Origin: Octopus sinensis
Lineage: Eukaryota
Length of the DNA: 64,000 nt
Assembly: GCF_006345805.1 (NCBI RefSeq)
Contig: NC_043017.1
Span: 20,894,001-20,958,000, forward strand
Direction of reading: 5' to 3'
The position numbers and the translations under genes are program-made. The notes under the pieces were generated by a model that was not told the DNA's origin, did no database searches, and saw only the letters and a program-made list of their open reading frames with translations. Below, piece by piece: positions 1,476 to 63,075 of this stretch (its first letter is position 1; every line of letters begins with the position of its first letter).

Positions 1476-2114
1476 CAGAGCTAGATTAACCATTAAGCAA
1501 AATAAGCATGTGCTTAGGGCAGTGCTTCTCAAAACATTTTGCTGGAGCAGAACCCCAAGGAAACATTCCACCGGCTCGAGGAACCCCTGTGCAATAATTT
1601 AATAGTCTTATGCACACATATCTGCACAGGAGAATTAAAAATTACTGCCGATTTTAGCAGTTTTGTAACTTCTTGCGGAACCCCTGGACTGTACTGGCGG
1701 AACCCTGGTTGAAAACCACTGGCTTAGGGCATCAAAGGAAGGAGTGGGGGCACCACAGAAATGGTAAATGGCTTACGGCACAAAAGAAATTACTTTAAAC
1801 TTGCTAAAATAATATTTGGGATGCCTTTATCTCTACTAAGTATAGATACAGGTGTGTTACCTAAGATTAATTTTGAGGGTCTGATCAAAGACTTTGCAAT
1901 TCAAAAATGAAAGAGAAAACTTTGCAAATATAAATAAAGTGGAAGTATACAAAAATAATCATTATTTTCCCTCTTCCTGTTTTTGTTTCATTTTGGAAAA
2001 TAAAAATTTATTTTATGGTTTGTTATTGTTTCTATTTTGAATTACATAATCGTTTAGGCAGGCACCAAAATCTTTTAAGTGCTTAAAACCTGAATGGGTC
2101 TTAATCCGGCCCTG
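1476..2114 (+). mobile_element. non-autonomous hAT (Tip100-like) element with transposase C-terminal remnant
   Basis: TIRs CAGAGCTAGATTAA / TTAATCCGGCCCTG; perfect 8-bp TSD GAACCAGG at 1468-1475 and 2115-2122; internal LSLLSIDTGVLPKINFEGLIKDFAIQK resembles the end of the hAT dimerisation domain. Confidence 0.9.
1520..1721. mobile_element. 202-bp hAT MITE nested in the Tip100-like element
   Basis: TIRs CAGTGCTTCTCAA / TTGAAAACCACTG; perfect 8-bp TSD GCTTAGGG at 1512-1519 and 1722-1729. Confidence 0.92.
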
Positions 2115-2915
2115 GAACCAGGTGCTTTTGTTCTTTGCGTGACACCAGCATTAGTGGGGTCACCAAGCAGCAGCTAGACAAGACCACTTAACTGAGTAAG
2201 CCCTAGAATCGAGGGATGATGAACTAACAGAGAGGGACAGTAGGAGGTATCATGCTGAAGTGGTGAATGCATAGCTTGGAAACAGAGATGAATATCATAC
2301 ACACACACAAACACACACACACACATGCGTGACTTTGTGTGTGTGTGCCTGTGTGTGGTTACAACACTACTGAATATTAAGTTACATCACATGGTATTGT
2401 TGTTACACTGTAGCAACAAATTAACAGACTTTATCTACAGTTACAGCCTCAATGCTTTTCTGGTATGTATATAATATTTAAGGGCACTAAAGTCACTCCC
2501 TATCCGACTCCATAGAAAGACCCCTAATATATAAGCATGGCATGGATATCACACAGCACTTGTTATATTTCTAGGGATTATTAGAATCACCTTAAGGTTT
2601 CTTCATGCAAATTATAAATCTGGTATTAACATAAGAAATCAATAATTATTTTCATGGATTAATCTGTAACTTTCCCCTTTATTTATAAATTAAAAGGTCA
2701 CTTTAATGGTGTGTGTGTGTGTCGGTGTGTGTGAAGGTGTTACTGATTGGAAAATGGGGGAGGAAGAATAACAGGTTTTTATGCTTATAATCTTAAAATA
2801 AAATAAGAGGATTTTGTTCATCGGAATAGGAATGAAGTGAAAACTATATCTTACTAAAACAACAGAAAAACTGAAAATTCTGTATTGTCTTCAAATGTTC
2901 AAATATTTAAATATA

Positions 2916-3023
2916 AGTGTGTGTATGTGAGTATATATATACATATATATATGCACAAATGTCTTTATGTGATTATGACATTTCTATAGATAAATGTATG
3001 AAGATGCTAATGTCATGCATATA

Positions 3024-3073
<50 letters not shown>

Positions 3074-3110
3074 GATATGTATATATATATATATGTACAT
3101 ATAAGCATGC

Positions 3111-3146
<36 letters not shown>

Positions 3147-3774
3147 ACATACATTTACCTACACATACATGTGTAGGTATATGTGTGTATGTCTACCTGT
3201 ATATATGTGTACATATATATGTTTGTGTTTATTTATGAATGCACACATGGCATACATGTAGACAAATCATGACATTATATAAATACCTGTTTGTACAAGA
3301 ACATTTTACACACATGCACTCATACATGTGTGTATATATATATATATGCATACACATATATATATACATGTGTGTGTGTATATACCCACACACACACCTG
3401 TATATAGGTACATAAATACATACATGTATATATACATACATGCATATATATGTACATACATACACTCATATGCACATACATACACGCATATGCACACATA
3501 TATAATACATGATATATATATATACATATATGCATTACATGCACACACACACACAAACCTTCACACAAAAACACAAACACAAAACCCACAAAACTACTAC
3601 TAACAAGTGCCACATTCTCACAAGCAGAGACATCAGATTAATGCATGTAGACATATAATAATACGCATATACCATGTACGAGCCATGGAGCATTCAGCTG
3701 TAAAAGACATACATACATGTACAGCTATATGCAGTCATATAGATACATACATTTACATAGACATGAATGCATAC

Positions 3775-3815
<41 letters not shown>

Positions 3816-3941
3816 CACATGTTAACAATGATAACCATGGAGAGTTTAACTGTAGAATACCTACATACATCCCTGTATATATGTATACATGTTTATATAA
3901 ACATGTATATATACATACATTTATATATATATATATAGTTA

Positions 3942-3975
<34 letters not shown>

Positions 3976-4133
3976 AATGTATGTATATATATAGTTATAA
4001 TTATATATATATATATATATATATAAATGTATGTATATATATAGTTATATATATATATATATATATATAAATGTATGTATATATATAGTTATATATATAT
4101 ATATATATATATTAAATGTATGTATATATATAG

Positions 4134-4177
<44 letters not shown>

Positions 4178-4440
4178 TATATATATATGTATATATATAC
4201 ATACATAAATACACACATATATACATATACATATATATACATAAATACATATATACATACATATATATACCTATATATATGCATATATATATGTATATAT
4301 ATATACACATACATATATGTACATATCTATACATATGCATATATTTACATATATATATGTAAATTTGTATATGTATATATATATATTCTCACATATATAT
4401 ATACATACATACATATATACATACATATATATGTGTTTAT
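2916..4440. repeat. compound (TA)n/(CA)n/(TACA)n microsatellite field
   Basis: Directly visible; includes a short AAATGTATGTATATATATAGTTATA unit repeated about four times at 3930-4140. Confidence 0.95.
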
Positions 4441-9990: not shown

Positions 9991-10388
9991 CATAGGAGTG
10001 GCTGTGTGGTAACTTGCTTATGAACCACATGGTTTCAGGTTCAGTCCCATTGCATGGCACCTTGGGCAAGGGTCTTTTACTATAGCCTCAGGCTGACGAA
10101 AGCCTTGTAAGTGGATTCAGTAGATGGAAACTGAAAGACACCTGTCGTATATATGTGTGTGTGTGTATGTGTTTGTCTGTCTGTGTTTGTCTGCCCAATA
10201 TCGCTTGACAACTGATGCTGGTGTGTTTACATCCCCCGTCACTTAGCGGTTCAGCAAAAAAAAATGATAGAATAAGTACTATGGGTCACAATGAATAAGT
10301 TCTGGGGTCGATTTGCTCGACTAAAGGCAGTGCTTCAGCATGGCCACAGTCAAATGACTGAAACAAGTAAAAGAGTAAAAAGAGTAAG
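9991..10388 (+). mobile_element. SINE family A, full length
   Basis: GGAGTGGCTGTGTGGTAA head, GGTTCAGTCCC B-box-like motif, GGCACCTTGGGCAAG core, internal (TA/TG)n and (GAGTAAAA)n tail. Confidence 0.9.
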
Positions 10389-18960: not shown

Positions 18961-19814
18961 TAAACCTCATTGCAACACAACTGAAGGAGAAGGGTGAGCG
19001 TAGGTAGTTGACATCTAAGCTTGGATTCATTTCCCTGCCATTGAATAATGCAAAGTTGTGACATTCATGCTACGCCGTTTTTTTTCTTCTTCTTTTCAAA
19101 TAGTTTAAGAAAGGGATTTGAAAGATAAATTTGGCACGTGACAAGGAAAGTGAACAAGGCTGGCTACAATATTACATTGTGAGCTTATCGTTAAACTACC
19201 TGCATTATTCTCCTCTAACGACCAGTATCAAGATTTAAATTAAAATCTATTTTATTCATTCCTAGCGTTGGCAACTTGGCAACAGCAATCCCAAAACCAG
19301 ATCGGAGAATGAAGGTGGGGCCATTCATCTTTTTCTTTGGTTAACCCTTTAGTGTGCACATTATTCTGTAAAATGGTAACGTTTATATATTCACATGTTT
19401 GGAATTAATTTTGCACTTTCTTGAAGATTTGAGATTTTGATGTGGCAACCGCTAATTTTTAGAATGACATTGTAGGTTAGGTGAAAAAGGCCAGATGTGG
19501 TCAGTTTGATCATAAAACAAACAGAATAGTCAGGCTACATATGGCCCGTAAAATGTTATGGGTCAACCTTTAAACATTCAAATTTCTTTCTCCAATGTAA
19601 TGCTTATTTATTCAGATGTTTTGAATTAATCTCACATTATCAGCGGTGGTGCCCCAGCATGGCCACGGCCTTTGGGCTGAAACCTTTTTAAGGATCTAAG
19701 AATTTATCTCAAAGCTTGGAGATTTTAATAAAGTAACTGTTAATTTCTAGGATGACAGTGTAGGGTAGGTGTGAGAGGCTGGATATGGTCAGTTTAAACA
19801 TAAAACATGTAGAT

Positions 19815-20135
19815 AATATTAATAAATCTCCGAACGAGATGTAAACAGTAACCGCTCAACAACGTAAATCAGTGACAGTGGTAGCTGGGAAAAACATTAA
19901 ATAGATATTCACCAACAGGTCACTCCAATCGAAAATCGGTGATTACCGTACGTTGACGAGAGGCAAATACCTCGAAACTATAGTCCGTATGTATCCCTTT
20001 GCGAATATCAGAAGGGCACAGAAAGTGTGTCTAAAGCCAGCTGGAGACGATGATCTCCTGGGGCTATAAGCTTCAGTAACACCCACCCCCAGTGGCTAGC
20101 CACATTCAGATGGCTAGTACACTTTACGTTGAGGT
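19815..20135 (+). mobile_element. Penelope-like/retrozyme-like element family H1 with 5' inversion
   Basis: 19938-20127 is homologous to 38068-38288; 19822-19868 is the inverted copy of the segment at ~37930-37972; carries a hammerhead fold. Confidence 0.75.
19947..19991 (+). ncRNA. type I hammerhead ribozyme (U3 variant)
   Basis: CGTACG-TTGACGA-GAGG caaata CCTC-GAAA-CTATAG-TC-CGTATG: stem I, core YUGANGA, stem II, GAAA, palindromic stem III and GUC site (predicted cut after 19985). Confidence 0.82.
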
Positions 20136-20139
20136 AGAT

Positions 20140-20285
20140 AATAATATTTTATAATCTTAAAACTTACAAACAATCACTGTGTAATGATGAAAGAAAATAG
20201 TCTAACATTGAGGCATATATTAGACTACTTCTTTTAGTCATTACACTGTGATTACTTATAAGATTTAAATTTATAAAATATTATT
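20140..20285. repeat. AT-rich inverted repeat (~65-bp arms)
   Basis: AATAATATTTTATAA..GTGTAATGA..TAGTCTAA versus TTAGACTA..TCATTACAC..TTATAAAATATTATT. Confidence 0.85.
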
Positions 20286-37777: not shown

Positions 37778-37865
37778 TTGGTAAAAACGGTAAGATAACA
37801 AAAGAAAGAAAGAGACCTCAATATTATGTAAATAGAGGAAATTTATCTATAAAATAATATGTAAA

Positions 37866-38289
37866 ATAAAGCTACAGTAACACCCCCTCCCCAATGTGGT
37901 TAGCCATGATAAGATGGCTTCTATACTTTACATTATCGAGCGATTACTGTTTCATTCTCATTCTGAGATTTAATTATGCTTACTGTTCGTTTTTCGACAT
38001 CAGTGGCAGACGCCATTAGAAAAACTTATATCTATTTGCAAAGAGGCCTTCACTTTCCTCGCGACCTGGTGGTTACCGCCCGTTGACGAGGGACAACAAT
38101 CCCAAAACTAGTTCGAGCGTATCACTCAGGCTTGCGAGGAAGGGATGGCCTCCCTTTGCAAATACTCCAAGGACACTGATATTGTGTCTAAAGCCAGCTA
38201 GAGACGAAGATCTCTTGGGGCTATAAAGCTATAGTAACACCCCCTCCCCAATGTGGTTAGTCATGATAAGATGGCTTCTATACTTTACA
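37866..38289 (+). mobile_element. retrozyme/Penelope-like element family H1, ~357-bp monomer with ~65-bp terminal direct repeat
   Basis: AAAGCTA(C/T)AGTAACACCCC..GATAAGATGGCTTCTATACTTTACA at 37868-37932 and 38225-38289; internal hammerhead; no ORF. Confidence 0.78.
38077..38119 (+). ncRNA. type I hammerhead ribozyme, probably inactivated copy
   Basis: CGCCCG-TTGACGA-GGGA caacaa TCCC-AAAA-CTAG-TT-CGAGCG; same architecture as 19947 with compensatory stems; GAAA changed to AAAA. Confidence 0.72.
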
Positions 38290-38535
38290 ATATGTACAGA
38301 GATGGCCAGATAACCGAAGAGATGGTGTTGTGGATTTCCACTTCGGCATCTGAAACTCAGAGTTTTATCTTGACTATTGAGTAATTGTACATATTATTTT
38401 ATATATATATATGAAATTACTACGATGATCCGGTTCTTGACTGAAGACTGAGGGTTTCGAATGTCCTGTCCGTGTTTATTGTATCGTCTTCTAAGAGTTA
38501 TACGTTCTTGTCCATGTTGTATTTTTCTACATACC

Positions 38536-61735: not shown

Positions 61736-63075
61736 AGGGGGGTAGAGGAAAAAAAAAATGAATCAATATAGGATCGTTATCACACAAATGTCAATATGAA
61801 GTGTAAAGGGGAGGACAGGTGAGGTTTACCCGTGGAAAGAAAAGCCTGCGGAAAAGACCACGGTAACCTCGGTCAATGAAGTCACATTTCATATTTCTTT
61901 TTTTTTTTTTTTTTTTTTTGCAAATAAGCAACTCTCTGTTTTCGATTTCTGGGTTCATAGGACTATGTCAAGGTGGCTTCGTCATTCATACGTGCCATTC
62001 TTGCTACATTCACCCATTTTTTTTAAAACATTCGCTAGACAAAACTTGCCTCTCTACTCTCACTTTCCTTTTCAAGTGGTACTTGAAGAAGTTGATGAGA
62101 GATTGACCAGAGAGGAAAGTGTTTGTCTCCAATCCTTTCAGACGCGTCCACCAGATACATTCTTTCGCCATAGCCACAAGGATGATGAAAATAGCTCTTC
62201 CTTCCCGTTTGAAGGAAGGAGGCGTGACAATATTGACGATAGACTCAGCTGATAAACCGACTCGTCCCACACGTGACAGCAGTTGTTCGACATAAGCCCA
62301 CAGGTCGGAAATTGTTGGACACTGAACGAGTGCGTGCAGAACGGTTTCGTCGCTCTTGACCGCATCTCGGGCAGGTCGGCCCCGTGTTTCTCGAGCCGTG
62401 TCTGTAGAGCTTATCCCGAACGGGTAGCGCTTCTCGGTTAGCACTGCCAGGCCAGGGATCTCTGGAAGTTGTCCATGGGCCCTGGCCCGAAAGTCGTCCT
62501 GAACAGGCGGGTCAGGTACTCCTCGTCGACGTCCAGGTTCGCCCCGAGCTCGTCGTCGTACCTCCCCTCCACTAACCCTATAGAATGCTTTGGTTGTGTT
62601 GAAGTCACTTAAGGTCGACCCAGGACGGCAGAGTTGCTTGAGAGCAACGCGACACTCGCGGTGCCATTCGCCCTTCCTCGGCCTCTTTTTGATCCACGAC
62701 TGCAGTTCGGTCATGGAGACGAGCTGCGGGAAAGCGTGCCTCACAAACGGCGACCACACCTGTTCACCGTCGTCTACATAGAGCCAGAGATGTCGCAGTC
62801 TCAGCGCGTGTCTGCGCATCATCAACCACGGCATGCCCAGCCCTCCTTTAACGGGTGTTGACAGCAAATGGATCGCCTGACCATCGGGACGCATCCTTTC
62901 CACAAGAAGCGAAAGAGGATGCGTTGTAGTTTGGTGATGGTAGGGTCGGGACAAGGTACGACGGTCAGGCGGTAGTAGATGACGGACGCGATGTACGGGT
63001 TCGCCACCTCCGCTCGACTTTTAGGGACAGTTTCCTCTCGGCCCATTGCCGGGCGAGAGTGACCACCCTACTCGT
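61542..63075 (-). mobile_element. 5'-truncated Tx1/L1-clade LINE (post-RT region, zf-RVT, 3'UTR) with 9-bp TSD
   Basis: IASVIYYRLTVVPCP..LFRFLWKG, GGLGMP and CPRCGQ..ETVLHALVQCP zinc knuckle across frameshifts; AATAAA at 61548-61553; TSD AGAGAGATA at 61533-61541 and 63076-63084; CpG-rich. Confidence 0.9.

Follow-up and report, generated by a model that had tools for sequence, protein, structure and literature searches.

The closest described systems are the retrozymes of animals and the Penelope-like elements (PLEs), and published work on both is taken here from the accessible parts of the papers cited. Mussel retrozymes of 350–390 nt yield abundant circles, and PLEs were named as merely a strong candidate for moving animal retrozymes (PMC7229834). 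Animal retrozymes have also been argued to be non-autonomous PLE derivatives, with their mobilisation left open, and one of nine Xenopus retrozyme dimers was cleaved in vitro (10.64898/2026.07.22.740005). PLE insertions are truncated at the 5′ end, form partial tandems, and carry an inverted arm together with a tail of 30–40 bp that is usually one-sided (10.1101/2021.04.23.441226, PMC3846280), with TSDs of 8–10 bp (PMC3846280). For a Poseidon PLE, whose protein is predicted to be dimeric, both strands of AT-rich DNA were cut in vitro, and reverse transcription began inside the RNA at two sites 3′ of the hammerhead, the tail being the interval between them; hammerhead cleavage in vitro was protein-assisted and dispensable for insertion, for which mainly uncleaved RNA served as template (PMC11167929).

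We analysed a 64,000-nt stretch of the Octopus sinensis genome (2.72 Gb, microsatellite-rich; assembly GCF_006345805.1, contig NC_043017.1), hereafter referred to as the window. The insertion under study occupies positions 37866–38289 on the forward strand and comprises 1.19 turns of a 357-nt unit that has 44% GC and no ORF, which places it among the low-GC, non-coding units of 150–450 nt typical of non-LTR retrozymes. It is 5′-truncated, ends at a 3′ position termed site A, and is itself ORF-less, as the initial annotation had read it: no stop-to-stop frame of at least 100 codons overlaps it. Its terminal redundancy, previously described as the same ~65 nt at both ends, was confirmed as a 67-nt repeat on the forward strand, in which 37866–37932, the remnant of the preceding turn, equals 38223–38289, whose terminus is site A, at a period of 357 with mismatches only at 38232 and 38261 (BLAST E 7e-28). 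LTR, PBS, and PPT were absent (PBS and PPT judged by eye), and the terminal repeat, being a partial turn of variable length, does not constitute an LTR.

The insertion is flanked on the forward strand by an 8-bp TSD, AATATGTA, located at 37856–37863, where it is followed by 2 nt foreign to the unit, and at 38289–38296, where its first base doubles as the element end. This TSD, earlier considered possible, is genuine, because the element splits a high-copy repeat whose intact copies (e.g., L189) contain the 8-mer once; the intact host repeat thus rules out a chance origin. The left arm of the host repeat (37779–37863, reverse strand; defined by a depth profile and intact copies) carries its own tail of ~70 nt and lies inside (TA)n, and the right arm (38299–38400, forward strand) is tail-less and opposite in orientation to the left arm. 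The host repeat is young and present in very many copies; its arms stand head to head, its 3′ ends are fixed, one side carries the tail, and (TA)n flanks it. It is probably another PLE-type family. None of the runs listed as containing the element is recorded as RNA. Contigs of two runs, tentatively taken for RNA, span the element; the flanking repeats were covered more deeply, and these contigs were therefore set aside as evidence of expression. On its own, the copy at 37866–38289 is an ordinary mutated insertion. Elsewhere in the window, the one long non-repetitive frame (62010–63020, reverse strand; 336 codons) contains a cysteine/histidine cluster, resembles the C-terminus of a LINE ORF2, and gave no Pfam match.

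A type I hammerhead is predicted at 38077–38119 (forward strand), with the cut after 38113 at a GUU triplet. It consists of stem I (38077–38082/38114–38119, one mismatch), the core UUGACGA (38083–38089), stem II (38090–38103), and a palindromic stem III (38107–38112). The G-to-A core change noted earlier is located at 38104 and affects G12, which belongs to the consensus hammerhead core (PMC3088659). It is private to this copy: A was found at G12 in one of the 65 family units scored (one of 44 in another count), and G at 38104 in all four runs compared. Judged from this substitution, the copy is, as had been proposed, probably inactive. Intact copies of the same family (family A) matched Rfam HH9 at 31.2 bits (E 1e-5), below the gathering threshold of 52, and Rfam gave no hammerhead match in the copy itself or in the related family D; in the scan of the whole window, the matches listed (150 of 412) were microsatellite noise. 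The copy contains a single hammerhead and would therefore be unable to release a monomer even if the ribozyme were active.

Stem III of this copy, ACTAGT, is a palindrome for which hairpin closure is impossible (2-nt loop), which points to a dimeric double hammerhead, a form described for metazoan motifs (PMC4209133). When two hammerheads were cofolded, the palindrome duplex was the only favourable pairing (−4.8 kcal/mol in family A), and unconstrained cofolding did not return the double-hammerhead fold. In family A, the cleavage triplet is GUU rather than GUC, and U occupies the third position of the core. GUU triplets are less active in hammerhead cleavage, and with this triplet, the stem I mismatch, and U3 also counted, the family-A hammerhead may be a weak ribozyme. 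Further hammerhead-core-like motifs (CTGACGA/CTGATGA...GAAA) are present in the window at 10093 and 22350, and the region around 10093 is a repeat common in PLE loci.

The second copy in the window, used in the initial annotation as a comparator, is located at 19820–20131 (forward strand) and represents a sister family, B, with a 338-nt unit that is 75% identical to that of family A; the copy has an internal deletion of ~30 nt. Its hammerhead (19947–19991) matched Rfam Hammerhead_1 at 28.3 bits (E 5e-5; gathering threshold 34). The re-pairing of all three helices relative to this copy was as claimed, whereas its inverted tail arm (19820–19868), which accompanies a main arm reaching site A, and its 10-bp TSD, GTAGATAATA (19809–19818 and 20134–20143), had been overlooked. 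At least six related families with units of 338–360 nt were found, namely A, B, C, D (352 nt), E (360 nt), and F (~352 nt), and families A to E are colinear and 50–75% identical. Two units seen in family E (L100:5541–6094 and L197) have a U3–A8 hammerhead core, a compensatory change previously described in Schistosoma PLEs (PMC4209133).

Covariation was scored in 11 sequences from six related families, on a structure taken from family D. In the hammerhead helices, 93% of 114 cells were paired and 7 of 12 pairs were compensatory, compared with at most 46.5% paired in slid controls. Families A, B, D, and E each have a stem III palindrome of their own sequence. At core pair 3:8, family D has C-G, families A and B have U-G, and the two family-E units have U-A. 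The earlier description of a retrozyme-like non-coding unit with a hammerhead under structural selection is supported. A long rod-like pairing, 38033–38042 with 38155–38164 (forward strand), is predicted around the hammerhead.

The conserved block downstream of the hammerhead, suspected earlier to be a second structured domain, is the start of a five-helix domain (six helices by another count) that shows compensatory changes and brackets both site A and a second 3′ end, site B. Its first half in the six families is formed by the conserved hairpins P4 (38171–38188) and P5 (38192–38222), both on the forward strand. In the copy under study, stem P6 is predicted to pair 37875–37881 with 37942–37949 (forward strand), enclosing a C-rich stretch, hairpin P7 (37902–37919), and site A. 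In this 3′ domain (P4–P8), 90.1% of 345 cells were paired and 7 of 32 pairs were compensatory, compared with at most 43.2% paired in slid controls, with the pair-count measure equalled by 55 of 500 shuffles. RNAalifold independently recovered four of the five helices, P6 being the one missing. Natural cut-to-cut monomers were more stable when folded as circles than their shuffles, with z scores of −2.4 to −3.5 in six family-A monomers and −5.7 to −9.1 in five family-D monomers against 40 shuffles per monomer. Given the relatedness of the sequences and the use of family D to draw the structure, the compensatory changes support the predicted hammerhead and second domain at a level short of R-scape-grade proof.because the sequences are related and the structure was drawn on family D.

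The census of family A was based on two genome searches, in which the best 40 of 1966 and the best 40 of 1248 first-look candidates were scored, numbers that are not copy counts. After removal of 7 duplicates from 60 loci, 53 were analysed. At non-polymorphic sites, their deviation from the majority is ~1.1%; they form many haplotypes and are scattered across many chromosomes. In four loci (L002, L008, L013, and L014), a single arm carries at least two whole hammerheads, giving tandem sources with 2–4 hammerheads; the longest array has 3.9 units, and multi-unit arrays are present in several haplotypes. Family A is thus young, dispersed, and partly tandem. In the longest array, L008, two neighbouring units have common private mutations, which points to local duplication after insertion.

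The ends of these insertions follow a strict pattern. Site A corresponds to unit position ~68 (37933 or 38289 in the window), and site B lies ~46 nt beyond it (~37980). Among the 87 family-A arms at the 53 loci, 45 ended at A, 33 at B, and 9 were unclassified, so that 78 of 87 had a fixed 3′ end at a classification tolerance of 6–7 nt, and their 5′ ends were scattered. The circularly permuted ends anticipated in the initial annotation were therefore not found; terminal redundancy reflects a fixed 3′ end combined with a 5′ truncation that falls at random within the preceding turn. The interval between the two sites forms a tail of ~46 nt (37934–37980, forward strand, with a small hairpin at 37956–37968), which in other copies marks one arm only. 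Of the 33 multi-piece loci of family A, 7 had one unclassified end and 2 had other layouts; in each of the remaining 24, which were head-to-head insertions with both outer ends classed, one outer end was at A and the other at B. The same held for 13 of 13 and 16 of 16 such insertions scored within 26 family-B and 28 family-D loci, respectively. Overall, all 53 classifiable two-armed loci had A and B as outer ends, and none had A and A or B and B. TSDs in unique flanks were AT-rich and ~10–15 bp long, as determined by a search permitting a few bases of slack, so that TSDs longer than 4 bp were found both in these copies and in the copy at 37866–38289. The targets were AT-rich, many copies lying inside (TA)n, within a genome that is itself rich in microsatellites.

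The two arms of an insertion are also alike in sequence. Inverted arms of one insertion differed at 4 of 127 polymorphic-site comparisons, compared with 7023 of 18155 (39%) between loci, and rare variants were common to both arms in 8 of 110 comparisons, compared with 38 of 16880 between loci. Since arms have the same haplotype and the same rare variants, the two arms of an insertion were most likely copied from one RNA; later conversion between the arms is a possible alternative source of this likeness. In family D, eight secondary pieces start (5′) at query positions 101–107, in the 3′ strand of the rod stem, which suggests template switches at the long inverted repeat in that family.

These insertions match the PLE pattern in all structural respects except for the ORF, the RT and GIY-YIG ORF of an autonomous EN+ PLE being absent from the element. 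Because the ends of the copies match those of PLEs, spread by a borrowed PLE enzyme is likely. Our verdict is that the family is a new non-LTR retrozyme family and a non-autonomous PLE derivative. For the copy at 37866–38289, we favour, by a modest degree of confidence, a 5′-truncated and likely ribozyme-dead retrozyme copy that was inserted in trans by a PLE, probably from a circular monomer RNA. In this mechanism, the PLE protein would bind the conserved 3′ domain (P4–P8) and cut AT-rich DNA with a stagger of 10–15 nt, and the two DNA ends would be primed at different sites of the same RNA, one at A and one at B. The two cDNAs would extend over variable distances and join head to head, or a single end would be extended, as in the copy under study. 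Two steps are weaker: the hammerheads of a tandem source may pair through the palindromic stem III to excise a monomer, and a host ligase may circularise it. Copying beyond one full turn would then give terminal redundancy and new tandems.

The template of this reaction was considered from the position of the predicted cut, which lies 177 and 224 nt before sites A and B, respectively. Of 26 arms reaching the cut site in a sample not selected for length, 21 read through it, which rules out the cleaved linear monomer as the main template; the template was therefore either a circle or an uncleaved tandem RNA. A circle is favoured because mussel retrozymes of the same size form abundant circles, the hammerhead is conserved, and a linear cycle shortens arrays. 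The same PLE-driven insertion from uncleaved linear read-through RNA of tandem loci, with no need for a circle and with the hammerhead acting as a weak or protein-assisted regulator, nevertheless remains a strong rival, and we assign it a substantial minority share of the probability. It agrees with the in vitro insertion that was unaffected by hammerhead mutants in the accessible text on the Poseidon PLE (PMC11167929), with the U3, GUU triplet, and stem I mismatch of family A, and with a pile-up of 5′ ends at the cut that was not significant, 5 of the 26 arms stopping within 8 nt of it compared with 2.5 expected (P=0.10). Adjacent turns had common rare variants in just 1 of 68 comparisons in family A; the corresponding value in family D was 5 of 56, a mixed outcome in which the family-D value counts against the linear template (one long array per family, L144 and L008, was dropped from this test). 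A purely linear cycle would, moreover, lose sequence in each round, yet several haplotypes hold multi-unit arrays, and the hammerhead, the dimer palindromes, and the canonical loop contacts are retained across families that are only 50–75% identical.

It is improbable that the copies are no more than the truncated pLTR ends of a long coding PLE, with tandems formed later, an origin that the initial annotation had listed among the outcomes that would refute it. The fixed ends of PLE type that such an origin predicts were indeed seen, but the copies are tandem units without a contiguous PLE ORF. Arms that run upstream past site B enter the previous unit and never an ORF, and of 150 retrozyme loci (duplicates included), 9 contained PLE protein matches, in no case contiguous with a unit. 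The scope of the searches leaves the pLTR origin some room, as the best 150 of 5029 GIY-YIG candidates were scored and the locus flanks were 1.5 kb long. The PLE fragments at L005, L026, L230, and L125/L097 were rejected as joined PLEs and are decayed targets or separate inserts, and those at L166, L143, L022/L164, and L057 were assigned to the same classes by distance only.

Autonomous PLEs with intact RT–GIY-YIG frames of 775–781 codons exist in the genome in copies that are 99–100% identical. No pLTR matching the unit was found in 64 GIY-YIG-anchored stretches around PLEs, and the search for an autonomous partner, which comprised a GIY-YIG scan, inspection of 34 longer stretches, BLAST, and a profile search with nhmmer, yielded only independent insertions near PLEs. 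A young PLE at L091 has an upstream frame of 479 codons (574–2013) overlapping an RT–GIY-YIG frame of 781 codons (1932–4277), and its long 3′ region contains short tandem repeats; L097 has a similar upstream frame. A piece of a third repeat is present in the window at 38413–38525; in L114, two copies of this repeat lie 786 nt apart, downstream of a PLE GIY-YIG frame and in the same orientation, and the repeat is possibly the pLTR of that PLE.

Least probable of all, and very unlikely in our judgement, is a SINE mobilised by LINEs, or a satellite or foldback element arising at the DNA level, with a hammerhead-like motif by chance: LINE machinery also gives 5′ truncation, 5′ inversion, and variable TSDs, and array L008 shows local duplication, but a poly(A) or simple-repeat tail is not encoded, the two fixed ends occur strictly one per arm, and the copies lie on many chromosomes.

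Beyond the trans-insertion by a PLE favoured above, we tentatively put forward a more specific and rather doubtful reading, in which at least six hammerhead circRNAs with a portable, covarying 3′ domain recruit a dimeric Penelope RT that has no parent matching in sequence, with one start site per subunit, and all two-ended insertions are twin-primed rolling-circle copies of one circle. If true, this would connect the circles of animal retrozymes to the PLE machinery by a mechanism for the first time and would provide a minimal substrate of 350 nt for PLE integration. The PLE tail signature on ORF-less families bears in any case on how animal retrozymes move. The tail has been remarked before to be usually one-sided; the rule of one A and one B end makes of this a sharp prediction for a dimeric enzyme. 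As a candidate landing site for the RT, the shared 3′ domain is well defined.

The suggestion that the family might be undescribed is in line with our literature search, which yielded no description of these families or of the one-A-one-B rule for retrozymes; Repbase or Dfam may hold the family unnamed. The words "ribozyme" and "retrozyme" are absent from the main text, as accessible, of a 2026 octopus repeat annotation (PMC13282606). Compared with the metazoan non-LTR retrozymes in the accessible text of PMC7229834, and especially with the mussel repeats of 350–390 nt, the present families are alike in having a canonical type I hammerhead with a short palindromic stem III, TSDs longer than 4 bp, autonomous PLEs alongside, a short non-coding unit with less than 50% GC, and dispersed monomers to multimers. 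They differ in that circles and cleavage were shown there and are predicted here, and in the U3 and GUU triplet of the present core; the two fixed end sites, the A/B arm rule, and the conserved 3′ domain seen here are not described in that text. The available part of the work on Xenopus and mainly vertebrates (10.64898/2026.07.22.740005) reaches the same conclusion on origin, with similar unit sizes and repeat limits; its evidence is co-occurrence and pLTR homology, whereas ours is the insertion signature, with no parent pLTR found.

With EN+ PLEs, as far as the accessible texts describe them, the insertions share 5′ truncation, partial tandems, head-to-head arms, and a one-ended tail (PMC3846280; 10.1101/2021.04.23.441226), as well as AT-rich or (TA)n targets and, as in Poseidon PAc, a pair of start sites located 3′ of the hammerhead (PMC11167929). 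Unlike EN+ PLEs, the present element lacks the RT–GIY-YIG ORF, and its tail is ~46 nt rather than 30–40; the distance from the cut to the start sites is 177 and 224 nt, compared with ~85–90 nt in Poseidon PAc (PMC11167929). Chlamys MRC1, as presented in the accessible portion of 10.1101/2021.04.23.441226, is likewise a non-autonomous PLE derivative, with pLTRs and head-to-tail multi-copy insertions.
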